A model generated the notes under the pieces. It was not told the DNA's origin. It saw only the letters and a list, made by a program, of their open reading frames with translations, and did not search any database. Of a stretch of DNA of 64,000 nucleotides, positions 1,173 through 63,588 are shown in pieces. The first letter of the stretch is position 1. Every line of letters starts with the position of its first letter. The stretch is from a virus. The stretch is taken from IMG/VR virus record IMGVR_UViG_3300025133_000032. One strand, 5' to 3'. A program made the position numbers and the translations under genes.

Positions 1173-1203
1173 ATTTAATTATACAATGAAGTGAATAGAA
1201 AAA

Positions 1204-2998: not shown

Positions 2999-3583
2999 TT
3001 ACTTGATTACCTTATCAACCAAGCCGTATGCTACAGAATCTTTCGCGGAAAGATAAGTATCTCGTTCTGTATCCTTGGTTATTTTCTTCTTTTTTTGGCC
3101 AGTATGCTTTGCTAAGATCTTGGTTAGTTTCTTCTTGACAAATCGCATCTCAGTTGTGGCAATTTCCACGTCTGTGACTTGGCCATAGCAGCCCCCGGTA
3201 GGTTGATGAATCATTACCCTTGCGCTGGGAAGAATTGTTCTGTGCCCTTTGCTACCAGCAGCCAAAAGTACTGCAGCCATAGATGCAGCTTGGCCCATAC
3301 AAACTGTTGCTACCTTGCACTTTAAGGACTGCATTGTGTCATAAATCGCAAGGCCAGCCGAAACACTACCACCCGGGCAGTTTATATAGAGGTTGATTTT
3401 TGCATCGCTATCCGCTTGATCTAAAAATAACAACTGTGCAATCAGCACATTTGCAGTTTCATCATCAATAGCTGATGTTAAAAACAGTACTCTTTCTTTC
3501 ATCATGCGAGAATAAATGTCATAAACACGCTCGCCTTCATCAGTTTGTTCAATAATAATCGGTGTTGATACCATATAAATCAT
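2999..3583 (-). CDS. clpP: ATP-dependent Clp protease proteolytic subunit (probable start ATG 3574)
   Basis: YDIYSR, YINCPGGSV, GQAASMAAVLL (catalytic Ser), VMIHQP (His), ERDTYLSA (Asp), YGLVDKVI. Confidence 0.96.
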   Translation of the reverse strand: MIYMVSTPIIIEQTDEGERVYDIYSRMMKERVLFLTSAIDDETANVLIAQLLFLDQADSDAKINLYINCPGGSVSAGLAIYDTMQSLKCKVATVCMGQAASMAAVLLAAGSKGHRTILPSARVMIHQPTGGCYGQVTDVEIATTEMRFVKKKLTKILAKHTGQKKKKITKDTERDTYLSAKDSVAYGLVDKVIK

Positions 3584-5750: not shown

Positions 5751-5768
5751 TTAATATATTATATTACT

Positions 5769-7216: not shown

Positions 7217-7245
7217 ATTATACCTTTACGTGGCGTTGTTGTAAA
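7217..7245 (-). promoter_or_regulatory. Sigma70-type promoter for the endonuclease, leaderless geometry
   Basis: TTTACA (7245-7240), 17-nt spacer, TATAAT (7222-7217), 5 nt, ATG 7211. Confidence 0.8.
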
Positions 7246-7342: not shown

Positions 7343-9271
7343 TTAGATAATATTCATATCTCGGACGGTTACTGTACCGTAGAAATCGCTTCTGACCATA
7401 CGCTTACCGTATCTCGTCATCACGCCCTTCCTGGGTGTGAAATCTTCAGGAGCGAATATTGTAGGAGTCACAATCAATGGGACATAAGGTGCGTAAACGT
7501 ACCCAGTTTCAAGATAATTCTTGCCCTTAAACCCTACCAAAACCTTGTTCTGCGGGAAGTAAGGATCCTTATAGACTGTGAATCTATTACTGATTGAACC
7601 TACAGGTTCTGCGCCCATCGTAAATGGATTCGCGACTTGACCCTGTGCATCAAGACTTAGAAGTGGCTTCCAAGCAATCGATGCTTCAAGGATAGTTGCA
7701 ACATCAGGCCCGACAACAATGAAGTTAGCAGAGCCACGAAGCGTCTTACGATGAATAGTATTCGCTACATCAATGATTGTTTCGACAAGAGTCTCGTACC
7801 ATTCACGTACTGTACCAGTAAATGTTGGGCCGGGAGCAAGTGTGCTAGCCAATAATTGTTCAGCACCAGTATTCTTGTTAACAAATCTACCAGGTGCTCT
7901 TGACCAATAAAGGTTAGCACCATTAGCTTCACGAAGAAGGTCAGAAAGAATCTCACGATCAATCTCAAGAGCGATTTGCTCAGAAAGAATCTGAGTAAGC
8001 TCGACTTCTGCGTCCATGCTGTGATAAGCGTTAAGATCCTGAGCAAGCTCTGGAGACCAACGTGCTCTTAACTTACGAGTGACTGCCGTTACAGAGATTG
8101 ACTCAATCTTGATATCAATTTCTGGAATGATAGGTGAAGCATCAGATGTACTGAAGTCCGACTCGAAGGAAGGAATTGTCAACGTTGAACCATCAGAACC
8201 ATCGACATCAAGACTTGCGCCCTGTGCAAATGAAGCAGTAAGTCCAAGTACTGGAGTTGCAGGAGCCAAAGGACCTACAAGTGTACCAGAAACGACTGTT
8301 AACAACGCAGCGTTAGCGTCAGTTCTACCAACCAAAGCGTTTGCAGTAAATACGCCATTAGCATATGTACCTAACTGGTTAGTACGGCGGAGGTTAAGAA
8401 CATTCTGTCCCTGGCCTTGAAGTGCTTGTGGCATTACTGCCAAACCAGTTTGAGCCAACCCTGCTGAGAAGACTGCAAATGATTCAACCTGAGTTAAATC
8501 GATTGTGCTAGGTAGTGCGGAAAGGTCAAAAACCAAGAATGAAAAACGTCCAGTGTTATCAAAAGCACCATTCGCAGAATCTTCTTCGATTCTTTGTCCA
8601 AGCTCAGGATCGAACATCATAAGCTGTCCGTCTGTACCCGTTGCATGAAGGAAAGCACCTGCAGAAAGTGTAGTACCACCCTGATAAGCACCAGAAGCAA
8701 GAAGAACTAGCTCATTGCCTGATGTAGTATCATGGACCTTCGTGTAACTCTGCCCAACAAGGTCGTATTGTCCGCCAGTTGCTAGTGAACCGGAACGAAC
8801 ACCCTTACCAGTAGGGGCATTGTAAATTGATCTTCCTGCTGAATACGTTTGTGCATTCGCGGAACCTGCTGCGCCAGTTGCTCTAGCACTGTCGCCACCT
8901 ACGTTAGTACCGTAAGTATAATCAAGATAGAAAAGCAGGCCAGAAGGAAGGCTCATTGGTTGAATTGAGACAAGCTCATTAGCAATTAAGCCACCAAAAA
9001 CACGACGAACAATTGGGAATGCGATATTGCTAAAGCCCCTAATATCGCCTGATGATGCTAGTGCACCTGCGCCAGTTGAAAGTGAGTTAACCTCACGAAG
9101 GACTTCGGCTGCTTGGTTTTCAAGCATCCGCGCCATATTCTCTTTACCAGCTCCGCCGAGGCCACGAAGAAGACCAGTACGGTTCCACTTCTCACAAAGC
9201 TTGGTTGCTACTGCACCCATATCGCGTTGCTGAATTCCTTCGGTGAGTTGATCTAAACTAAATTTACCCAT
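7343..9271 (-). CDS. Major capsid protein, T4 gp23-like, with large insertion domain
   Basis: FPIVRRVF, LVSIQPMSLPSGLLFYLD, TRKLRARWSPELAQDLNAYH, EIDREI, GYVYAPYVPL, GVMTRYG. Confidence 0.97.
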   Translation of the reverse strand: MGKFSLDQLTEGIQQRDMGAVATKLCEKWNRTGLLRGLGGAGKENMARMLENQAAEVLREVNSLSTGAGALASSGDIRGFSNIAFPIVRRVFGGLIANELVSIQPMSLPSGLLFYLDYTYGTNVGGDSARATGAAGSANAQTYSAGRSIYNAPTGKGVRSGSLATGGQYDLVGQSYTKVHDTTSGNELVLLASGAYQGGTTLSAGAFLHATGTDGQLMMFDPELGQRIEEDSANGAFDNTGRFSFLVFDLSALPSTIDLTQVESFAVFSAGLAQTGLAVMPQALQGQGQNVLNLRRTNQLGTYANGVFTANALVGRTDANAALLTVVSGTLVGPLAPATPVLGLTASFAQGASLDVDGSDGSTLTIPSFESDFSTSDASPIIPEIDIKIESISVTAVTRKLRARWSPELAQDLNAYHSMDAEVELTQILSEQIALEIDREILSDLLREANGANLYWSRAPGRFVNKNTGAEQLLASTLAPGPTFTGTVREWYETLVETIIDVANTIHRKTLRGSANFIVVGPDVATILEASIAWKPLLSLDAQGQVANPFTMGAEPVGSISNRFTVYKDPYFPQNKVLVGFKGKNYLETGYVYAPYVPLIVTPTIFAPEDFTPRKGVMTRYGKRMVRSDFYGTVTVRDMNII

Positions 9272-12892: not shown

Positions 12893-13504
12893 TTATTTGA
12901 ATGCTAAGTTTGCCCAGTTACCAGCAGACTGTGGGAAAAGATCACTGGGGGTATGTTTCTCTGCGAATGCAGCAGCAGCATCAGCCGGTGGTGAGTATCC
13001 TTGACCAGGCATCTGTGGACCAGTGCTGGGAACTGATTTTCCATGGCCCTTTGAGTTTTGTTCGGCAAGCGTCGTGGCCGCTGTATGCGCAAAGATATCC
13101 TGCATAACATCAGGTGATATTCCTGCAAGCTCTTGGGGCGCCTGTCGTTGATTACTATGTGATACATCATTGGCAATATTGCCTAATATATTCTGCGTCG
13201 GAGATGGCTTGTCAAGAACGCCATCAAATTCCTGGCGGCGCTCATTTTGTCGTGACATCATAAGACGCTGTGAAGGATTAATATAATCCCTAGATGCTGG
13301 TTCCTCTCCAAGACCAGCTAGTACGGAGAACTTACTAGTGTCAGTAATTGATGCATAAGATTCTGCCCCCTGTATTTGGGCGGGCTTGGGCTTCGAGGTT
13401 GGTGTTAAAGCTTCCAGCATTGAACCGGGATTAACTTGCTCCTTGATTATTTCACGCAAACATTCTTTGACTAACTCTTTCAGCTGGCTTCTTTTTAATC
13501 TCAT
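12893..13504 (-). CDS. Hypothetical head protein with LKELVKECLREIIKE leader
   Basis: 203 aa immediately downstream of the prohead protease. Confidence 0.7.
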   Translation of the reverse strand: MRLKRSQLKELVKECLREIIKEQVNPGSMLEALTPTSKPKPAQIQGAESYASITDTSKFSVLAGLGEEPASRDYINPSQRLMMSRQNERRQEFDGVLDKPSPTQNILGNIANDVSHSNQRQAPQELAGISPDVMQDIFAHTAATTLAEQNSKGHGKSVPSTGPQMPGQGYSPPADAAAAFAEKHTPSDLFPQSAGNWANLAFK

Positions 13505-13507
13505 ATT

Positions 13508-14149
13508 TTACTCGTCGAAGGTTAGGATGCTCTCTGCAGCACTTAAAATTCTGCCACTTTTTTCTGGCGATTCCTGAAGTGGTTTGTTTCCTATTACATT
13601 TCCATGGCGATCATAAATGACCTTACCTTCACTCATCATAAATGCACCAGGTGTCGAAGGTTCTGCAACCATATCCCAACAAATCAACTGGAAATCATCA
13701 TTTACTAATTGGTGGTCTCCCTTATCAGATGTCGAGCCAACGCCTCTTGATGAAATTCCGACCTTGATTCCAGATGTAATTAGTCCTTCAAGAATTTTAC
13801 CCATAGGCGTCGAAGTAAGTACTTCGATTTCACCCATAACGACGTCACCTTCTAGAACAGCGCTAGTAACTACATGTGATACCTTTTGTAGCTCTACTAC
13901 AGATGTCGATGGATGGTCTAATTCACCTAGTGCCCGTCTTTCATTAATAAATTTCTGGTAATTTCGTACTTCACGCTCCAATATAGCATGTGGGTAGATT
14001 CTACCATTCTGGTTTAATGTTTCAGCTTTTTGCAGAACACCTTTCAAAATTATCTTGCCGCCATTTCTATCACGCGATTCACGGATAGAATCTGCAGTAT
14101 ATGAAAATGGAGCCCATTCTTGAAGTAATTTGACTGGCACTTTACTCAC
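13508..14149 (-). CDS. Prohead core protein protease, T4 gp21-like
   Basis: NQNGRIYP, ALGELDHP, VSH, GISSRGVGS, DFQLICWDMVAEPSTPGA. Confidence 0.95.
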   Translation of the reverse strand: MSKVPVKLLQEWAPFSYTADSIRESRDRNGGKIILKGVLQKAETLNQNGRIYPHAILEREVRNYQKFINERRALGELDHPSTSVVELQKVSHVVTSAVLEGDVVMGEIEVLTSTPMGKILEGLITSGIKVGISSRGVGSTSDKGDHQLVNDDFQLICWDMVAEPSTPGAFMMSEGKVIYDRHGNVIGNKPLQESPEKSGRILSAAESILTFDE

Positions 14150-14996: not shown

Positions 14997-17900
14997 TTAT
15001 GAATCAGACTCGTTTTCGAAATCACTTAAGTCAATTTCGAAAATCGGATCGTTAATTACAATGTCATCTACATTAAGATACTCTGTTAACATTTCCCGTG
15101 GCATTTTCATTTCTTTCTTAATACTATCTATATGCTTGCCAAGTGAAGTTAAAATAACTCTCATTTCATATGACATATTTGATGTCTTATTTTCTGCAAG
15201 AAGCAAAGAGTCATCGTTTAAAATTGCATCAGAGAGTGAACCACTAAATGGACTACCACGAAAAAACTTTAAATCGTTAGGATCACCATCAGGCTTTACT
15301 ATAGAACTAAAATCTGGCATGTGCGTTTTTGTGGGACCGTGTGTTCTGCGACGCTTCCTATTATAACCATATCTCGATAGTTGATCAGATTGCTTCACAG
15401 ACTTTTTGCGCTTCCTAGGTTTATCATCATCTTCACTTCCATCATCCATTAGCGCTTGGTGAAGTGAGATATCCTCATCGTCGTTTGGATCATCATCAGA
15501 AACGATTAATCTCTTTCCGTGATCTTCGCCTGCGAATAAGTCTTCTTCTCCAGCGCCAGAATCTCCGCTATCGTCGTCAATGTCAAGGTCTTCGCCACCG
15601 CCCCCGTCATCACCCGCTAGACCATCTGGAAGATCGCCGTCGCCGTCTTCACCTTCATATCCGCCACCGAGCCCGCCGCCGCCAAGAGCGCCGCCACCCC
15701 CTCCGCCCATGGGTGAATTATCCTCAAGTTCTTCTGACTCAAGTTTTAAGTCAAGCACTCTATCTTTGAATCTGCCCTTCTCAATCAGCTCAATCTCGTC
15801 ATCTGATAAGCTTAATACTTCTTTTTGGATATATGATCTGTCAAGAAGGCCTTCTGGAATTGAACCTGCAATTTCGAATTTAGTTCTAAATAACTCTAAT
15901 TTTTGTTGCTGGGCGACCGTAGAGGGGTTCGATAGCATTAGCGAAAAATCTGATAGATCTTCGCCCTCATATCCATGTGTATATAGATGGATTTGAGCTA
16001 TCTTCTCCAATTCTGAAATTAGGACGCGTTGAATCTTACTAATTGTTCTACTAAACCTGATGTCTTCCTGTGCAAGTGTTGCCTTACTGGATAAACTCTC
16101 GTCATACCCCAAATATGCTTTGGGAACTTTTAGAGCAGAAAACAGCTTTCTTTGAATGTACTCTACATCAGCGATGTCAGATACGTGTTGTCCACCAGCC
16201 AAAGTATCAATCTTCGTTCCAGTTTCGCCACCACGAACAGGGATGAAGTAATCTTCGTCCACAGACAATGGGTTATACCTAAGATCAACCCTACCCGATG
16301 ATTTATCGACGACTTGAGACCTTTTTAGCTTAGTTTGGGCGGCTTCCATGTAGTTAGGAATATCCTCAGTAGGTACCGTTCCGACATCAATGTAAAAAAC
16401 ACGCCTTTCTGGTGATCTGACAACCCTATAAACAAGCATTGCATCTTCAATAAGGATTAATTGCCGCCAAATCCTTCTTGCACTTTCTAAGACGGACGAC
16501 CCATATGGCAAGAAGGCATCATTACCGACCATTCTGAAATGTGATACCTGCCAGGCGTCAAGTATTTGGTTACCTTGTGTAACCCACCTAAATCTTACAG
16601 CAAGGGGCTCTTCTGGATCATACCCTTCCTCACGCTCGACTTCATTTACAGGCATGGGAAACACATTGACTACACCAAGCTCAGGGTGTACATCATTGAA
16701 TAAGAACATATCACCATATTTGCAAAGATTTCTAGTCCAGGCTGTCAGGTTATGGTCAACATTAATAATATCAAGAAATAACTCATCAAGAAGCTGCTTT
16801 ATTTTAGGGTTCTCAGAAAAAATGTGGAGTGATGAATCCTTCTCATTTACGGCAGTCGTTTCCTCAGAAAAGATGTCAAGTGCACTACAAATCTCAGGTG
16901 TATTATGCGAAATGACCGTATCAGTGGCGAAATTCTTATACCCGTCAACAGTCAAGTCATACAGGGGAATTTCTCCATAATACTCTACAGAAACAACTTT
17001 ATGATTTGCGTAATTTTCTCTAAAATCAGTAAAGTTTTTGTAACCGTTGTTTTTTAGCCTGTTTTTAACTTTAGCAGCCGTTGTATCTAGTTTTTCACAA
17101 AGAAGTGACAACTGCATGCCATCTTCGTATGTGTCACAAACAGACTGGAATGTTAACGATGAATCGTAGCGTGGGTTTTTACTTCCCTTATTATCCCATG
17201 AGTTATTTTTCCACCCAGGTGAGTAGGCTGCAGCAAACGTTTCGAAATTCTTAAAACCATTTTTTCGCAATCTTCGCTTGATTACGTTCGGGTCAGTATC
17301 AAGCTTGCTGCATAAAGAATAAAGATTAAACTCAGAATTTTCGCATATTTCTAAAATTTTTCCGAAAGTGATGTCTCGTCTTTCAGCAGGATTATTCTCC
17401 TTCATAAATTTAGAATGATTAGCTTTAAATTTGTTTATCCACTCTTGATTATCAGGTGACCACTTGTGCCCATTTAAAATCTTACGATGGTAGCGATTAT
17501 GTTCGTCTGCCGTCATTATCTGTAGATTTTCTGGGTTATTATCAAATTTCGTGAAATTCTTATGATGAACAACTTCGCCCTCTTTAAGTTGTCTGTTTGA
17601 TGCCCACTCTGCTACTACTTTATGTTCACGCTGCCAACCATTCGCGATAGTATATATAAATCTATAATCGGTACCAGAATCTGTGCCTTTCCCTTCGCCA
17701 TACCATGATTTACGATAAAATGGCATCATCGAATCGCCGGCACTTAAACCGTCAATTCTACAAAACGTACCGTCACGTTTCATTAATCTATGATTTGCTG
17801 TCCCTATTATTTCCTTGCCACTATTAAATGTAACTTTCCAAGCATGATCAAATCTTGTCTGTCTAGCATGTTTTCCGAGAGCCGGTACGATACTTTTTTT

Positions 17901-19397
17901 CTCATGATCGTAAGCATAGACATAAAAAGTATCATCAGCGCTATACTCTTCAGATAATTGTTTTATCGTTTTATACCCATCTAGTGTAGCTATCTGTGTA
18001 TCGCCCGCCAAACAATATTCCATTTCAGCGAAATCTGCGTACCGTGAGTTATGGCAAACTATTGAATTTGTTGCAAAATTCTCATGCCCGTCGACAGTCA
18101 TATCGTAAACCGGAATTTTTTTCCAAGGAGTAACAGAGACAACTTTATGATTTCTAAAATTATCTTTCTTAAATTGCTTCCATTTTAAATCTTTTTTATC
18201 AAGAAATCGTGTAAGTGTTGCGCCGCTAATATTTAGTTGATCTGATATTTTTAAGACTGTTGGTTTATCGATTCTCTTTCCAGTTTCAACTATTAAATCA
18301 ATTGTTAATTTAGCAGTTTCACTTTTTCTTGATCGGCCTTTCCAGTATTCTGCAAAATTTCTTGAAGATTTTATTCTACCCTCAGCCCATGCGTGCTTTA
18401 TTGTTTTTGAATGTTTATTTTTATTTTCTTCTACTTTATACCAATCGCTACGTGTTTTCGCACCCTTTGCAACACTCTCAGGATTATGCGATGGATTATT
18501 ATTTAACCAATGATTTCGGCGCATTTCACGAATTTTTGGTTGGCGATTAACATTAGCGACACCGGCTCGTCGAGAGCCATCATCTTCATCCCAAGCTTGC
18601 TGGATCCCTGCAATCATTTTTTCGCGATGGTCGATCCATTGTTGCTTTGTATCTTGGGCATGTAACTTTAGGTGCTCTTTAGCATCCATAATTAACAAGT
18701 TGTCTGGAGTGTTATTCTCAGAATCATAATCAATATGATGAATATGTTCCTCGCCTTTCTTTACTTTTCTTTTTGTGCTCCACTCTGCAATTAATTTATG
18801 CTCAGATATCCACCCATTCCAACCAGATGGATCCATTGTATAAATGTTTTTATAACCGGTGAATTGTTTACCATCTTTTGATGTTCCATTAAACTGCTTA
18901 CGATAGAAAGGCATCATTGAGTCACCAGCTTTTAAACTGCCAGCGTCTTGATACTCCCCGCTACGTGTCATACAAGGATGATCAGGCGTACATATAAGCT
19001 CTGTGTCATCGTCAAATTTAATTTTTACAGTGTCTTTTATACCTGACTGTCTTGGATGATGCGCGTAAGCTGGAACTATCTGTTTTTTCTCATGATCATA
19101 TGAATAAACAATAAACTTTTCATCTTTAGGATATCGCTTAGCTAATTCTGCAATCGACACAAATCCCTCTTTTCCAGGAACTGGTATAAGTGTATGTCCC
19201 GCTAGACACTGTCGATCATATTGCCCATATGCATTTAATGCATTACTATATACTTGGCTGTATGATTTTTTAAATGCGGTTACCGCACTCGTTGCAGTTG
19301 GTTGTCTAAAAGAACGAACTTTTTTCTTTAATACCGGGCCGCCACGAAAAAGTTGCGTTAGCCTTTTGAATAAATCATCTCGTCGATTTTCTGCCAT
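14997..19397 (-). CDS. Portal protein, T4 gp20-like, interrupted by two inteins (spliced length ~708 aa)
   Basis: PEICSALDI, RNLCKYGD, ARRIWRQLILIEDAMLVYRVVRSPERRVFYIDVG, EDYFIPVRGG, TKIDTLAGG, LKVPKAYL, EDIRFSRTI. Confidence 0.95.
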   Translation of the reverse strand: MAENRRDDLFKRLTQLFRGGPVLKKKVRSFRQPTATSAVTAFKKSYSQVYSNALNAYGQYDRQCLAGHTLIPVPGKEGFVSIAELAKRYPKDEKFIVYSYDHEKKQIVPAYAHHPRQSGIKDTVKIKFDDDTELICTPDHPCMTRSGEYQDAGSLKAGDSMMPFYRKQFNGTSKDGKQFTGYKNIYTMDPSGWNGWISEHKLIAEWSTKRKVKKGEEHIHHIDYDSENNTPDNLLIMDAKEHLKLHAQDTKQQWIDHREKMIAGIQQAWDEDDGSRRAGVANVNRQPKIREMRRNHWLNNNPSHNPESVAKGAKTRSDWYKVEENKNKHSKTIKHAWAEGRIKSSRNFAEYWKGRSRKSETAKLTIDLIVETGKRIDKPTVLKISDQLNISGATLTRFLDKKDLKWKQFKKDNFRNHKVVSVTPWKKIPVYDMTVDGHENFATNSIVCHNSRYADFAEMEYCLAGDTQIATLDGYKTIKQLSEEYSADDTFYVYAYDHEKKSIVPALGKHARQTRFDHAWKVTFNSGKEIIGTANHRLMKRDGTFCRIDGLSAGDSMMPFYRKSWYGEGKGTDSGTDYRFIYTIANGWQREHKVVAEWASNRQLKEGEVVHHKNFTKFDNNPENLQIMTADEHNRYHRKILNGHKWSPDNQEWINKFKANHSKFMKENNPAERRDITFGKILEICENSEFNLYSLCSKLDTDPNVIKRRLRKNGFKNFETFAAAYSPGWKNNSWDNKGSKNPRYDSSLTFQSVCDTYEDGMQLSLLCEKLDTTAAKVKNRLKNNGYKNFTDFRENYANHKVVSVEYYGEIPLYDLTVDGYKNFATDTVISHNTPEICSALDIFSEETTAVNEKDSSLHIFSENPKIKQLLDELFLDIINVDHNLTAWTRNLCKYGDMFLFNDVHPELGVVNVFPMPVNEVEREEGYDPEEPLAVRFRWVTQGNQILDAWQVSHFRMVGNDAFLPYGSSVLESARRIWRQLILIEDAMLVYRVVRSPERRVFYIDVGTVPTEDIPNYMEAAQTKLKRSQVVDKSSGRVDLRYNPLSVDEDYFIPVRGGETGTKIDTLAGGQHVSDIADVEYIQRKLFSALKVPKAYLGYDESLSSKATLAQEDIRFSRTISKIQRVLISELEKIAQIHLYTHGYEGEDLSDFSLMLSNPSTVAQQQKLELFRTKFEIAGSIPEGLLDRSYIQKEVLSLSDDEIELIEKGRFKDRVLDLKLESEELEDNSPMGGGGGGALGGGGLGGGYEGEDGDGDLPDGLAGDDGGGGEDLDIDDDSGDSGAGEEDLFAGEDHGKRLIVSDDDPNDDEDISLHQALMDDGSEDDDKPRKRKKSVKQSDQLSRYGYNRKRRRTHGPTKTHMPDFSSIVKPDGDPNDLKFFRGSPFSGSLSDAILNDDSLLLAENKTSNMSYEMRVILTSLGKHIDSIKKEMKMPREMLTEYLNVDDIVINDPIFEIDLSDFENESDS
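16902..18014 (-). mobile_element. Intein 2 in portal (371 aa) with HNH endonuclease
   Basis: Starts Y/CLAGDTQI; block B IIGTANHRL; VVHHKNFTKFDNNPENL...EH (HNH); ends LYDLTVDGYKNF...ISHN/T. Confidence 0.93.
18048..19208 (-). mobile_element. Intein 1 in portal (387 aa) with HNH endonuclease
   Basis: Starts Q/CLAGHTLI; block B LICTPDHP; HHIDYDSENNTPDNL...EH (HNH); ends VYDMTVDGHENF...VCHN/S. Confidence 0.93.
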
Positions 19398-25267: not shown

Positions 25268-26887
25268 TCAGGCACGTGAGGCGGCCCACTTGACATCTAT
25301 GTCTTCATCTTTCAAAAGTGCGAACAGAACATCATCTGGTGTGTTTTTATTGAGTCCTACACATGTCTTAACTGAACTATTGGGATCTTTCGCAAGTACC
25401 CTTAATATATCAGGTGATATATTGGGGTTATTCGCTAAACCCCACCTAACTCCTGCGGCTTTATCTTTTATAAGAGCTTTTAAGACATCACCCGGCGTGC
25501 GGTGGTTCATCGCCACCGCACGCCGGACATTTGCACCTGGGTCTTTTGAAAGTTCTCTTAAAGTCTCAGGGGGCATATTATTGGACGCAGCATTTTGCCT
25601 TGTCTGGTGATCGTTATCTTTTGCAAGCTCTTCCAGGGAGTCGGGAGGTGTATTTGGGTTTGATGCTATACCACGTTTAGTCTGTTTATCTTTACTTTTC
25701 ACAAGTTCTCTCAAAGTATCAACTGGTATATTTGGGTTAAGTAATGTATTGTACCGTGTAGTTTCATCAGGATCTTTCGCAAGCTCTTTTAAGGAATCAA
25801 CTGGTGTATTTGGGTTTGATGCTGCGCAATGCCTAACCGTTGCATCTTTATCTTTTGCAAGTTCTCTCAAAGTATCAACGTGTACGCTTGTATTATAAGC
25901 TACATCTTGTCGAATGCGGACATCTTTGCTTTTTGACATTTTTGAATAGTGGTGGTTATTTAAAACAATAATATAATCTTGAACGTCTTTTGTTGGCTTT
26001 AAGCCAGCAATATTCTTGAATTGATTTGTAGTTGCGACGAATGCGGGTGGTCTTAAGCCCTGAGCGAATTTTTTAAATCTTGGAACTGACGTTACTGCTT
26101 TCTTGATATCTCTTATTGCTGGGTGGACGTCATCGATTGCACGGCTCATTTCGATAGCCGCATGTATCTTGGGCCATTCATCACCAAAAGCTTCCTGGAA
26201 ATCAAACTGTTGATTATTTTGGTTAACAGTCATTTCATTCGGGTGTGATGGTTGTACCTCACCGCCGATTGTTCCGATTGACCACTTCTTATTTTCGTCA
26301 TGTTTATCAAGAACATAATAAAGTGATGTTGTACCTTCTAAAATATAGCTATAAAATAGATTCTCGCCCTTTGTTCTTGCAGTGCACCATGTTGTGCCCT
26401 TTCCGATTGCACAAGAAGCCTGGATGCTTCTTGGCATCAGAACAATAAAGTTGTCTGACTCATAAACTTTGTCAGCATCGCCAGATGCTGCCTTGAAGTC
26501 TATCTTAGAGTCATCAGGAAGCTCTTCAAGCTTCCTGTGTAAATCACCGGCCGTTCTATAACTATTAATGTCTGCGTCTTTTCCCTTTAGCTTCTGTCTG
26601 CTTTTGGCGCCATCAAAAGAAATAATGAGGGGCGAAATGTCTCTTAAAGGTTCTTGATTTGAACGTGAAACACGTTCAAGCCACATAAGATATTGTCTTA
26701 GTTTGGCTTGAGGTAGAGCTTGAAGTTTTTCTAAAACTTCATCCCACTCTTCTGGAGACCTGTTAGATTTTGCTTTGACATCATCAATCGCACCTTCTGA
26801 GAGTAATTGTCTGGCTAGGTCTTTTATGCGGGCCTCTACCAGCTGATTTGAAATTATTTCCCGGAGTTCTCTAATCGTGATGAGCAT
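25268..26887 (-). CDS. Leader + PcfJ-like (WCT) domain + ~9 LRV/HEAT-like 24-aa repeats; probable head-packaged protein
   Basis: MLITIRELREIISNQLVE leader; ASCAIGKGTTWCTA; repeated LAKDxDxxVRxxxAxNPNTP. Confidence 0.75.
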   Translation of the reverse strand: MLITIRELREIISNQLVEARIKDLARQLLSEGAIDDVKAKSNRSPEEWDEVLEKLQALPQAKLRQYLMWLERVSRSNQEPLRDISPLIISFDGAKSRQKLKGKDADINSYRTAGDLHRKLEELPDDSKIDFKAASGDADKVYESDNFIVLMPRSIQASCAIGKGTTWCTARTKGENLFYSYILEGTTSLYYVLDKHDENKKWSIGTIGGEVQPSHPNEMTVNQNNQQFDFQEAFGDEWPKIHAAIEMSRAIDDVHPAIRDIKKAVTSVPRFKKFAQGLRPPAFVATTNQFKNIAGLKPTKDVQDYIIVLNNHHYSKMSKSKDVRIRQDVAYNTSVHVDTLRELAKDKDATVRHCAASNPNTPVDSLKELAKDPDETTRYNTLLNPNIPVDTLRELVKSKDKQTKRGIASNPNTPPDSLEELAKDNDHQTRQNAASNNMPPETLRELSKDPGANVRRAVAMNHRTPGDVLKALIKDKAAGVRWGLANNPNISPDILRVLAKDPNSSVKTCVGLNKNTPDDVLFALLKDEDIDVKWAASRA

Positions 26888-27549: not shown

Positions 27550-29013
27550 CTAATAATTATTGTCTGCAGCAAATTTCACAGAATCATTTTTATCTTTTCT
27601 AAGCATAACAACAATTTCATCTGGTGTCGAGAGATTTTCGGCGACGTTGCGCCTGACACCTGCGTTACTACTCTTTGCTAAAATTTCGTAAATGTCAAAT
27701 CCGAGGGCCGGTCGGCGTGATAGTGCGGAGGTAACAAATGGAATATCATTTGTCGCAAGTATCTTAAAAACTTCATGCGAAGCATTTTTATTATTTAAGA
27801 CAGCATACTGGATCGATTGGTTGGGACGTTTGGCAAGCATGGTGATTGTTTTCGGATCTGTAACAGTCATTGCAGCTTGAGCTAGAAGATCTTTATCATC
27901 GCCGTCTATAAATGTCATTAATACTTGCTCGGGTGTCGAAGGGTTACGAGCAACGCCGCGACGCACAAACCAGTTATCATCAGAAGCCAATGTAGCAAGA
28001 AGCTCTGGAGGTGTGCGAGAACTATGAGATGCTTCTTCTCGCACACCCTCATTTTCGCTTGTTGTCATCTTTGTTAAAGCCGGTATTATAATTTCGTTGG
28101 TATAATCACTAACTTCACCAGATAATTTATTACCTGCTGATTCTAATGAACTCAATAAAGCTAAAATTGCTGGGACTCGCATGCCTTTAACGAGCTTTTT
28201 AAATCTTGAGACTGACGTTACTGCTTTCTTGATATCTTTTATTGCTGGGTGCTCTTTTACTTTTTTTGAATGCAGTGTAATAGCATTTATAATGTCTTCT
28301 TCTTCTTCTTCGAACTCAAAACTAAAATCAAAATCATCGTTATCTTCGTCAACTGTTACAGAACCATACTCAGGCTCTTGTACTTCGCCATTGACTGCCC
28401 CAATTGACCACTTTCTTTTTTTATCATGCTTGTCAAGAACATAATAAAGAATGACGCCATCATTTATTATGTAATTGTAAAATAAGTTCTCACCTTTGGT
28501 CCTTGCTGTGCACCATGCCGTGCCGCGCCCAAGCGCGCACGAAGCATCAAGGCTTCGGGGCATCAAAACAACAAAATTGTCTGATTCATAAACTTTGTCA
28601 GCATCGCCAGATGCTGCCTTGAAATCTATCTTAGAATCATCAGGAAGCTCTTCAAGCTTCCGATGAAGATCCCCAGGGGTCTTATAGGCGTTAATATCTG
28701 TGTCTTTTCCCTTTAACTTCTGCCTGCTTTTAGCTTTGTCGAAAGAAATGATTAAAGGTGAAATATCTCTTAGGGGCTCTTGATTTGAACGTGAAACACG
28801 TTCAAGCCACGTGAGGTATTGTTTTAGTTTAGCTTGGGGGAGGATTTGAAGTTTCTCGAAAACTTCATCCCATTCTTCAGAATGTCTATCAGATCTTGCT
28901 TTAATGTCATCAATGGTGCCTTCTGTAAGAAGGCAATTTATTAGCTCTTTCAAGCTAGTTTCTACCAGCTGATTTGAAATTGCTTCCCGAAGTTCTCTAA
29001 TCGTGATGAGCAT
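27550..29013 (-). CDS. Paralogue of 25268..26887: leader + PcfJ-like (WCT) domain + ~7 degenerate LRV/HEAT-like repeats
   Basis: MLITIRELREAISNQLVE; ASCALGRGTAWCTA; VRRGVARNPSTP, VRRNVAENLSTP; long near-identical DNA blocks shared with the other copy. Confidence 0.75.
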   Translation of the reverse strand: MLITIRELREAISNQLVETSLKELINCLLTEGTIDDIKARSDRHSEEWDEVFEKLQILPQAKLKQYLTWLERVSRSNQEPLRDISPLIISFDKAKSRQKLKGKDTDINAYKTPGDLHRKLEELPDDSKIDFKAASGDADKVYESDNFVVLMPRSLDASCALGRGTAWCTARTKGENLFYNYIINDGVILYYVLDKHDKKRKWSIGAVNGEVQEPEYGSVTVDEDNDDFDFSFEFEEEEEDIINAITLHSKKVKEHPAIKDIKKAVTSVSRFKKLVKGMRVPAILALLSSLESAGNKLSGEVSDYTNEIIIPALTKMTTSENEGVREEASHSSRTPPELLATLASDDNWFVRRGVARNPSTPEQVLMTFIDGDDKDLLAQAAMTVTDPKTITMLAKRPNQSIQYAVLNNKNASHEVFKILATNDIPFVTSALSRRPALGFDIYEILAKSSNAGVRRNVAENLSTPDEIVVMLRKDKNDSVKFAADNNY

Positions 29014-29125
29014 GTAGTATTATATATTGACGTTACATCGTAAATCATTGAATTTTATGCCTTAGTACCCAATACATATGAGGTTAAAGTTAACTAGATG
29101 ATGATACATGAACACTGGTGAAACA

Positions 29126-61939: not shown

Positions 61940-62617
61940 TTAACAAAATGTATCACTAAATTGATATAGCTCGTTTTGGCTGTCGACTTGAGTAACATTT
62001 GCAGTGCATCTAACATCGCCGAATAATAATACTTCATCTTGGCCAATATCGAATAGCATCGGAACCTCTTTCCAATTTAAATAAAATCCGTTATTTTGTA
62101 TTGGCGCAGAAAACACTACCACCCAAGCAGGGTAATCCCACTCATCTTCGTCTTTATACCCAGATGGATTATAGTATTCCGAATGAAAATTGCTATGCAG
62201 CATTGCAAGATCACCAATTTTTTTATATGATGTAGTCCAAGATGAAACATCTTCCGTTTGTGACATTCCGCCGCCGCCACCTGCTTTATAGTTAAACGTT
62301 TGGTGGCCGGCGTGGAGCTTAAGCTTTTCTAATTCTTCCAATTTCGTAATAAGTATTACTCGGTATGCAGTTTTAAACTCTTGTGCCGGCTTGAGAACAT
62401 TAGGATAATCATCAGCCATATCACGTATTAAAGCTATTGTCTCTTTTGATATGCCCCCGCCTCCATCTACGTAACGCTCCAGCTGATGTGATGCCCTTCT
62501 CTCTGATGGTACATCTAATTCACCAGTGCCCCTTTCTTGACCTAAGGCATGCTTTTCCCACTCTGGTTCGGCGGCATCTTCTTTAAGAAATACTCTAATA
62601 AATTCTTGTAATAACAT
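61940..62617 (-). CDS. Putative ADP-ribosyltransferase (R-S-E class) with head-protein-type leader
   Basis: AYRV (R), SSWTTS (S-x-S), GQDEVLL (Q-x-E) in canonical order; N-terminal MLLQEFIRVFLKE. Confidence 0.6.
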   Translation of the reverse strand: MLLQEFIRVFLKEDAAEPEWEKHALGQERGTGELDVPSERRASHQLERYVDGGGGISKETIALIRDMADDYPNVLKPAQEFKTAYRVILITKLEELEKLKLHAGHQTFNYKAGGGGGMSQTEDVSSWTTSYKKIGDLAMLHSNFHSEYYNPSGYKDEDEWDYPAWVVVFSAPIQNNGFYLNWKEVPMLFDIGQDEVLLFGDVRCTANVTQVDSQNELYQFSDTFC

Positions 62618-62634
62618 TAATACTAACTATTATA

Positions 62635-63522
62635 TCACATGCTATTTTTGCAATGCTCCGTATTTTCAAAATCACAAAACCTGCATGAATCCCTATTTTT
62701 CAAAAAGAACCCTTTCTTAACAGCCTTCGCATGATTCTTAATAATATTTAATCCTTTAGCTTCAGCTTTTGGACCTACTGAAACTGGCACTAATTGCACT
62801 GCCGGTGATCCTATCTTTGCATCTCTCTTAAGCAAAGCAAAAGCACACCTAATATCTTTTAGAGGAATATTATGCTTTTTTGCCCAAAAGCTCTTATACA
62901 AAATCAATTGCAGCTGTACTTTAAAATCTTGCTTTTTATGACGTGTCCATCCCCAACCGCATGTTTTCCAGTCAATAATCCAGTAAATTACCTTACCATT
63001 CTTCTTCATGACCTTAAAGACTGCATCAATAAAACCTTTCAATGATATAGGTAATCCTTCGATGGGTTCGTATAACCTTTCTTCAGCACCAAAGCACTCC
63101 CAACCAGGAAATTCTTTATTTAGGAATTTTGGAATGCTGTTAAGGATATTGTCTGCTTTTTTGAGCCAATCATCTACATTACCATATCCCCCTGGAGACC
63201 AATCAGGAAAGGGCCCATTCATAAATGCTTCATGATTATCTTTCCAGTCTTTACGAATAAAGTCAAATGCTATCTGTTTATTCATTGTTCCTTTAGAGAT
63301 GAAATATTCATTTGCATTATGACATGCAGTCCCTAACCCAACATGGGGTGTAGTTGAAAATGTACCAAGCTTTTCGATATATAAGAGTTTGTGCCTCCAA
63401 CTACACTCAAGCCAGTTGGCGAGCTCAGAATACGAGACGTGGGGTTTACCAGTAGGCCAATCTACCTCTGTGGATTTAAAGTCTACTGGTAAACCTGTAC
63501 TGGGATCAATAATCGCTGACAT
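62635..63522 (-). CDS. PD-(D/E)xK nuclease, Cas4/RecB-like, with Fe-S cluster cysteines
   Basis: SYSEL...C, GTACH, KGFIDAV, IIDWKT, QLILY, CRFCDFENTEHC. Confidence 0.88.
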   Translation of the reverse strand: MSAIIDPSTGLPVDFKSTEVDWPTGKPHVSYSELANWLECSWRHKLLYIEKLGTFSTTPHVGLGTACHNANEYFISKGTMNKQIAFDFIRKDWKDNHEAFMNGPFPDWSPGGYGNVDDWLKKADNILNSIPKFLNKEFPGWECFGAEERLYEPIEGLPISLKGFIDAVFKVMKKNGKVIYWIIDWKTCGWGWTRHKKQDFKVQLQLILYKSFWAKKHNIPLKDIRCAFALLKRDAKIGSPAVQLVPVSVGPKAEAKGLNIIKNHAKAVKKGFFLKNRDSCRFCDFENTEHCKNSM

Positions 63523-63588
63523 ATAAATTATTATATGTCAGCGTGTGTTTTAAGTTTAAATTTAGTGATTTATGAATTCATGCTTACA

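Follow-up and report, generated by a model that had tools for sequence, protein, structure and literature searches.

A predicted ADP-ribosyltransferase with a candidate capsid-targeting leader in a large T4-type phage

INTRODUCTION

Does a 225-residue open reading frame (ORF) of an uncultured virus encode an ADP-ribosyltransferase (ART), and is its product carried in the head of the phage and then injected into host cells? We addressed this question for protein P0001, which is encoded in a 64,000-nt stretch of DNA (referred to here as the window) from IMG/VR record IMGVR_UViG_3300025133_000032. The protein's own database entry lies on a 308,593-bp contig, and the source is a large uncultured myovirus of the T4 type. 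On the basis of fold enrichment and motif invariance, we conclude that P0001 is very probably an ART-fold protein of the R-S-E clade that represents an undescribed family. On balance, and with more modest confidence, we favor the reading in which P0001 is a mono-ADP-ribosyltransferase of this clade that is packaged in the head and injected as an effector in the manner of T4 Alt.

The precedent comes from phage T4. Its internal proteins (IPs) carry 10- to 19-residue N-terminal capsid-targeting sequence (CTS) propeptides that are removed by gp21; in IPIII, targeting needs no more than the first 10 residues, and processing is controlled by residues 8 and 10 (PMC9026906). Alt is cleaved at two sites, ITE-6 and LTE-619, and each head contains ~40 copies of it (PMC5694885). 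Phage ARTs found in myoviruses are, by prediction, often head packaged (Iyer et al. 2022, PMC9503650).

RESULTS AND DISCUSSION

Predicted fold of P0001

The gene and the three motifs considered below are as follows.

61940..62617, minus strand: gene for the ART-fold protein P0001, 225 amino acids (aa)
62360..62368, minus strand: Arg motif A84-Y85-R86, within the first strand of the core (strand 83-90 of the model); R86 is invariant in 13/13 family members
62237..62245, minus strand: S125-S126-W127 (SSWTTS), counterpart of the S-T-S motif; it lies on strand 124-128, after which comes helix 133-147
62033..62041, minus strand: Q193-D194-E195 (QDEVLL), catalytic motif of the [Q/E]-x-E type; strand 195-199 follows a loop and begins with E195

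An earlier, sequence-only reading of this DNA had picked out the ORF and the three motifs in order, and both were confirmed: P0001 is encoded by one minus-strand ORF with the motifs where they had been placed. The ATG at 62617 is the sole usable start codon, since a TAG in the same frame occurs four codons upstream of it. The gene is real, with homologues on other contigs at 46 to 49% identity.

An AlphaFold run on the single sequence gave a predicted local distance difference test score (pLDDT) of 33, and a model built from a five-sequence alignment was used in its place (mean pLDDT, 69; predicted template-modeling score, 0.68), in which the core from residue 80 onward mostly scored 80 to 93. 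In this model, the placement of R86, S125-W127, and E195 on the strands listed above is the canonical layout of R-S-E ARTs. The model was compared with 48,161 representative PDB chains by the use of VIA-align. Matches had Z scores of 5.0 to 5.7, and 33 of the 35 that aligned at least 85 residues belonged to the ART superfamily. These included XopAI, Vis, Tre1, KptA, EcPltA, SpvB, pertussis S1, HopU1, and ExoS, as well as C3, ART2.2, VIP2, scabin, DarT, and diphtheria toxin; the remaining rows were 40-residue helical-hairpin matches.

Among the closest structures, at sequence identities of 9 to 15%, were pertussis S1, scabin, and the guanine-specific ART 5zj4. A second look with VIA-align set residues 2..158 of the pertussis S1 chain against model residues 79..220 and residues 55..186 of scabin against model residues 57..223. 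We take the catalytic residues to be R9/S52/E129 in pertussis S1 and R77/S117/E160 in scabin, which agrees with the listed S117A and E129D mutant entries. Judged by the alignment end points and this assumed numbering, R86, S125, and E195 of the model lie opposite the catalytic residues of both enzymes. In a separate prediction, the ESM Atlas model, the structural neighbors carry the ADPrib_exo_Tox, Pertussis_S1/Scabin-like, ART, and DarT families. Matches in BFVD (E values down to 3e-5) were uncharacterized jumbo-phage proteins, two annotated ART-related proteins, and one 1,390-aa head-morphogenesis fusion protein. The ART fold with an R-S-E triad that the sequence-only reading had claimed is thus supported by the fold searches and by family-wide invariance (see below), and the modeling and fold search that it had proposed did predict an ART fold, albeit at modest Z scores (5.0 to 5.7) and with weak Foldseek matches in the PDB.

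Conservation of the catalytic motifs

The three motifs by themselves are weak evidence for an ART. What places them beyond chance is that R86, S126, W127, and E195 are invariant among sequences with 17 to 49% identity and lie on the strands expected for R-S-E ARTs. The family set comprised P0001 and 12 relatives from metagenomes and viral contigs, and the residues invariant across all 13 members were E33, D35, E39, Y71, R86, Y110, S126, W127, E195, and G200. S125 was present in 12/13 members, and the serine motif has the variant form S-S-W rather than S-T-S. The commonest forms of the motifs among members were Y-R-G, V-S-S-W-T, and E-x-E-[VYF]-L-L-x-G.

The family is a small one. An exhaustive phmmer search of 1.84 billion representatives returned only P0002 (49% identity), P0003, and P0005 as true relatives; P0004, a 2,801-aa protein, was a spurious repeat-protein match and was dropped. 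Profile and pattern searches added P0006 and the long forms P0008 and P0009 (~1,000 aa) and P0010 (541 aa). Family members were found at seven viral-contig loci, with extra copies in two of these contigs, and the sole return of a metagenome scan was a 1.3-kb contig. Viral-contig scans with the A1, P0005, and P0009 queries gave no match, a tblastn search of 50,697 phage records found no relative of P0001, and a word-indexed search found only P0001 itself.

Other features of the family were also apparent. An acidic motif, E-x-D-x-x-x-E, at P0001 residues 33 to 39 (62501..62521, minus strand) was invariant in 13/13 members, including those that have no leader; it reads EPDTEIE in most relatives, and its position is ahead of the first core helix, in a part of the model with low confidence. 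P0001 has two runs of four to five glycines, at residues 51 to 55 (DGGGGIS) and 112 to 116 (AGGGGGM), both in low-confidence loops of the model; the second directly precedes the S-S-W strand and is common to P0002. In P0008, P0009, and P0010, the N-terminal ART domain is followed by 300 to 800 residues without a Pfam match.

The leader of P0001

The sequence-only reading had also described an amphipathic leader ending in L-x-E and had called it a capsid-targeting-type leader. The element is present, and three features of the genome bear on what it does.

62579..62617, minus strand: leader MLLQEFIRVFLKE, codons 1 to 13, ending in L11-K12-E13; candidate capsid-targeting propeptide with a prohead-protease site
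7343..9271, minus strand: T4 gp23-type major capsid protein (Pfam PF07068, E value of 2.9e-75)
13508..14149, minus strand: gp21-type prohead serine protease, Peptidase_S77 (Pfam PF03420, E value of 1.2e-25)
12893..13504, minus strand: head-module ORF of 203 aa, immediately following the protease gene, with the same leader type (…LKELVKECLREIIKE…), found with the leader profile

The gp23-type capsid protein indicates that the phage head is of the T4 type, and the Peptidase_S77 is the enzyme expected to cut after [LI]-x-E. In T4, processing is blocked by an Asp at the position equivalent to E13. The helical hydrophobic moment of the leader was 0.57, which bears out its amphipathic character. L3, I7, R8, L11, and E13 were invariant in the five closest homologues, and the pattern conserved among homologues was L-[RQ]-x-x-I-R-x-x-L-x-E. 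In the T4 record, IPII and IPIII begin with MKTYQEFIAE, IPI begins with MKTFKEF…ITE, and Alt begins with MELITE; the window leader contains QEFI, like IPII and IPIII, a tetrapeptide that is not kept in the homologues. Head-core or scaffold ORFs near the protease gene contained 25 to 44 [LI]xE motifs per 1,000 aa, compared to 11 overall.

To look for the leader elsewhere, we built a profile from the four nonwindow homologues only and scanned the 57 other N termini of the window, with 836 internal control blocks as the null. Three N termini scored above all 836 control blocks, namely, that of the head-module ORF listed above and those of two paralogues:

25268..26887, minus strand: leader-bearing paralogue 1 (MLITIRELREIISNQLVE…), unrelated to the ART
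27550..29013, minus strand: leader-bearing paralogue 2, with an LRV/HEAT repeat tail, unrelated to the ART

Outside the leader, none of the three proteins resembled the ART. The same arrangement was seen on a larger scale in viral contig G003, where an ART homologue (MKLLREYIRQLLSE…) is one of at least 10 consecutive genes that each start with the tag M..LREYIR..L.E, ending in [LI]-x-E (L016:10045-20000 and L017:886-1209). This array includes a PolyA_pol-type nucleotidyltransferase (541 aa) and a Zeta_toxin-like P-loop kinase (253 aa) and looks like a cassette of head-cargo enzymes. Contig G001 has a similar tagged array with two ART copies. Conversely, some family members have no tag or have other N termini (L009/L010, L011, and L006/P0010). 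Because the tag occurs on unrelated genes in arrays and is absent from some family members, it is a modular element separate from the ART fold. Genes for gp23 and Peptidase_S77 are present in both near-complete genomes with a family member (G002 and G005). The capsid-targeting-type assignment is therefore supported: the leader is modular, [LI]-x-E stands at its end, and the phage has a gene for a gp21-type Peptidase_S77. By analogy with the logic of the T4 CTS, which the modularity of the leader matches, P0001 is probably packaged in the head.

Variation in the N termini was observed in several relatives. In P0008 and P0009, the Glu of the leader is lost, and an L-[TN]-E is conserved near residue 30. 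G004 has two tandem leaderless copies (L010:4965-6284). The complete 298-kb genome G005 has a single leaderless copy with a TTG start at the EPDTEIE motif (L011:9995-10567), and its neighbors are leader tagged; in this copy, the tag may have been lost or the gene may be decaying. The N terminus “MKVKIK” of the G002/P0010 forms was considered as a second shared leader, but it gave three pattern matches only and is also a common Mre11-type start.

The region upstream of the gene

Two features of the upstream region are relevant here.

62618..62634, minus strand: 17-nt intergenic spacer TATAATAGTTAGTATTA, containing TATAAT (62629..62634) and ATAGTTA (62624..62630)
62635..63522, minus strand: PD-(D/E)XK nuclease gene, upstream of the ART gene

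The sequence-only reading had interpreted ATAGTTA, 6 nt upstream of the ATG, as a late promoter. The heptamer is indeed located exactly 6 nt before the ATG, at 62624..62630 on the minus strand, but its interpretation did not hold up, as it does not match TATAAATA, the late consensus of T4, and shows no enrichment over the window (8 copies versus 12.4 expected). Of the seven copies on the minus strand, four are no more than 15 nt upstream of a start codon, and two precede a leader-bearing gene by exactly 6 nt. A start-proximal signal of some kind is probably present; nothing marks it as a late promoter. The T4 consensus itself, which may not be the consensus of this phage, occurs three times on the minus strand of the window, each time within a gene and never in an upstream region. 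The T4 record, by comparison, has a perfect TATAAATA and a Shine-Dalgarno (SD) sequence upstream of alt. The spacer before the ART gene contained no SD sequence, no −35 element or sigma-70 −35/−10 pair, and no preceding terminator.

Approximately eight window genes have TATAAT 3 to 11 nt before the ATG and no SD sequence (examples of the hexamer are at 63530..63535, 29019..29024, 7217..7222, 5758..5763, and 1178..1183), whereas structural genes have strong GGAG-type sites. This suggests that the genes with TATAAT near the ATG form a class with leaderless or near-leaderless transcripts. A perfect palindrome with a 13-bp stem (CGCTGACATATAAT…ATATGTCAGCG; window 63514..63543) has within it a TATAAT as well as the start codon of the nuclease gene upstream of the ART gene and could regulate transcription or translation of the nuclease gene.

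A head-packaged effector and its alternatives

In the reading that we favor, the first 13 residues of P0001 would be a modular amphipathic tag that docks the protein on the prohead scaffolding core. The gp21-type S77 protease would cut after L11-K12-E13 to leave, within the head, a 24-kDa enzyme of 212 residues (predicted mature form, residues 14 to 225; isoelectric point, 4.7), which would be ejected with the DNA at infection and would ADP-ribosylate a target in the host at the expense of host NAD+. The NAD+ would be bound by R86 and S125/S126, catalysis would fall to E195, and Q193 would contribute to the selection of the acceptor. We infer the enzyme activity of P0001, its cleavage, packaging, and injection, its target, and the timing of its action.

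Several observations weigh against this reading. With respect to the fold, the alignment behind the model is only five sequences deep, and residues 1 to 35 have pLDDT values below 50; all VIA-align Z scores were below 6, which is the “middling” range by the tool's own grading; and Foldseek gave a best E value of 0.06 against the PDB, with none at ≤0.001, though ART toxins headed the list. A Pfam scan of five members at E values up to 10 matched no family, including ADPrib_exo_Tox PF03496 (Alt/VIP2) and the other ART families; a PHROG scan of P0001 and its homologues gave no relevant match; and phmmer and hmmsearch searches of PDB sequences gave chance matches only. Comparison of a nine-member profile with T4 ModA, ModB, and Alt by the use of hhalign gave probabilities of 1.2%, 4.3%, and 0.3%, respectively. 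These values are not significant and place P0001 outside those families by sequence; the weak alignment to ModB does set its LYRG on the YRG motif of the P0001 family. With respect to packaging, [LI]xE is found by chance in the first 25 residues of ~20% of window proteins, so the motif alone proves little. The window ART gene, unlike its homologues, is outside any leader-gene array and follows a nuclease gene; it is preceded by neither an SD sequence nor a recognizable late promoter; and the predicted mature protein is acidic.

Some of these observations would be expected if P0001 were an active ART that is not packaged but is made after infection, like T4 ModA and ModB (~200 aa), and acts in the cytoplasm on host or phage proteins, with the leader serving some other end, for example, oligomerization, localization, or degradation by ClpP. 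P0001 is similar to ModA and ModB in being a predicted single-domain R-S-E ART of a T4-type phage, and its size matches theirs (200 to 207 aa; genes of 600 to 620 nt). Its gene comes after that of a nuclease and is preceded by TATAAT alone, without an SD sequence or a T4-type late promoter, and the phage encodes a ClpP at 2999..3583. ModA and ModB differ from P0001 in that they are unpackaged and have no CTS, however, and the leader of P0001 is common to a head-module ORF beside the prohead protease gene and always ends in a gp21-type [LI]-x-E. It is also modular over unrelated enzymes in arrays, as in the T4 internal proteins, and the ART gene is directly upstream of the structural block and co-oriented with it. 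We regard an unpackaged ART as unlikely, though worth keeping in view. Use of the leader as a ClpP degron was ranked low because the tag always ends in an S77-type cleavage motif and occurs on a head-module gene.

It is improbable, in our view, that P0001, though of the ART fold, is an NAD+ glycohydrolase (NADase) or other consumer of NAD+ instead of a transferase that modifies a macromolecule and serves, for example, to drain or reshape host NAD+-dependent defense signaling. NADase activity is common among R-S-E ARTs and is the main activity of some families (PMC9503650), and no target-recognition feature was identifiable in P0001. Nevertheless, the full R / S / [QE]-x-E set, which is typical of transferases, is conserved, including the residue at position −2 that positions the acceptor, and the closest structures are toxins that modify proteins or nucleic acids. 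Least probable of all is that P0001 is a phage protein of another kind, with a common alpha/beta arrangement and a conserved but unrelated R/S/E pattern: the sub-6 Z scores, the Foldseek E values of 0.06 or worse against the PDB, the lack of hidden Markov model or hhalign support, and the shallow model alignment would all fit, but 33/35 domain-size matches drawn from 48,161 mixed chains were ARTs, the separate Atlas model points to the same families, and the invariant residues coincide with catalytic positions.

Comparison with known packaged proteins and ARTs

A head-packaged effector of this kind would resemble T4 Alt in several respects. Both come from T4-type phages that have a gp23-type head and encode a gp21-type protease; P0001 is predicted to have R-S-E ART chemistry; [LI]-x-E ends the N-terminal propeptide of Alt (MELITE) and the candidate one of P0001; and the predicted route of core docking, cleavage, and ejection with the DNA is the same. 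The two proteins are otherwise distinct: Alt has 682 aa, is also processed C terminally, has a perfect TATAAATA with an SD sequence, and belongs to the Alt/VIP2 family, whereas P0001 has 225 aa, no profile similarity to Alt, a 13-residue tag of another consensus, and Q-x-E. With IPI, IPII, and IPIII, the likeness is in the short N-terminal tag that ends in [LI]-x-E on unrelated cargo and in the diversity and clustering of the cargo genes and their variation among related phages (PMC9026906). The tag here, M-x-L-L-R-E-Y-I-R-x-L-L-x-E, has 13 to 14 residues, compared to 10 in T4, and among the cargo are enzymes (ART, nucleotidyltransferase, and zeta-like kinase) in place of small inhibitors of restriction.

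MuF-fused and polyvalent-protein ARTs of myoviruses are likewise phage ARTs predicted to be carried in the head and injected (PMC9503650). The 1,390-aa head-morphogenesis fusion matched in BFVD and the ~1,000-aa forms of the P0001 family, which have an N-terminal ART, are reminiscent of these proteins. Targeting here would depend on a cleavable leader rather than on a MuF or portal fusion, and no MuF domain was found.

The head-packaged ART as a kind is already known from T4 Alt; the family, the tag, and the E/Q polymorphism described below are new. Since the family is unseen by Pfam, PHROGs, and PDB sequence searches, it would be missed by routine annotation. With P0001, the leader-tag system of these marine giant phages of the T4-like type gains a recognizable enzyme and a cargo with an assayable activity. 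The leader arrays in which a nucleotidyltransferase and a zeta-like kinase stand beside the ART suggest that these phages inject a variable enzyme cocktail.

Q-x-E and the choice of acceptor

The sequence-only reading had raised a possible nonarginine or nucleic acid target on account of Q-x-E. At position −2 before E195, Q is found only in P0001 and P0002/L001, and E is found in ten other members. E-x-E is associated with arginine as the acceptor; for Q-x-E, the associated acceptor is Asn (C3), Cys (pertussis toxin), or guanine (scabin and pierisin). P0001 shares its Q with the Q-x-E ARTs (C3, pertussis S1, and scabin/ScARP/pierisin) but differs from them in that identity is 9 to 15% and most members of its family have E-x-E. 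The Q is therefore a recent change within the family and not a family-wide trait, and a nonarginine or changed acceptor in the Q-x-E subclade is plausible. We hypothesize, as a rather long shot, that the E-to-Q change retargeted a capsid-delivered ART to a nonarginine acceptor (Asn, Cys, Gln, or guanine in DNA or RNA). If true, this would be the first leader-packaged, injected nonarginine or nucleic acid ADP-ribosyltransferase of a phage. The E/Q polymorphism provides a natural pair for studying the change of target choice in ARTs.

Genome setting

Every large ORF of the window is on the minus strand. The ART gene comes after the PD-(D/E)XK nuclease gene and is followed by a 181-aa ORF of unknown function and two GT4 glycosyltransferase genes; the structural block that it adjoins, directly upstream and in the same orientation, is that for the tail and baseplate. 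Other window genes encode the large terminase, SbcCD, baseplate wedge proteins, and a portal protein with HNH insertions. The ClpP protease encoded at 2999..3583 was identified by its match to PF00574 (E value of 3e-77). The portal gene (14997..19397) encodes 1,466 aa, and HNH-endonuclease-like segments at residues ~180 to 260 and ~550 to 650 precede the portal domain (residues 832 to 1208); these segments could be intein-like or homing-endonuclease insertions.

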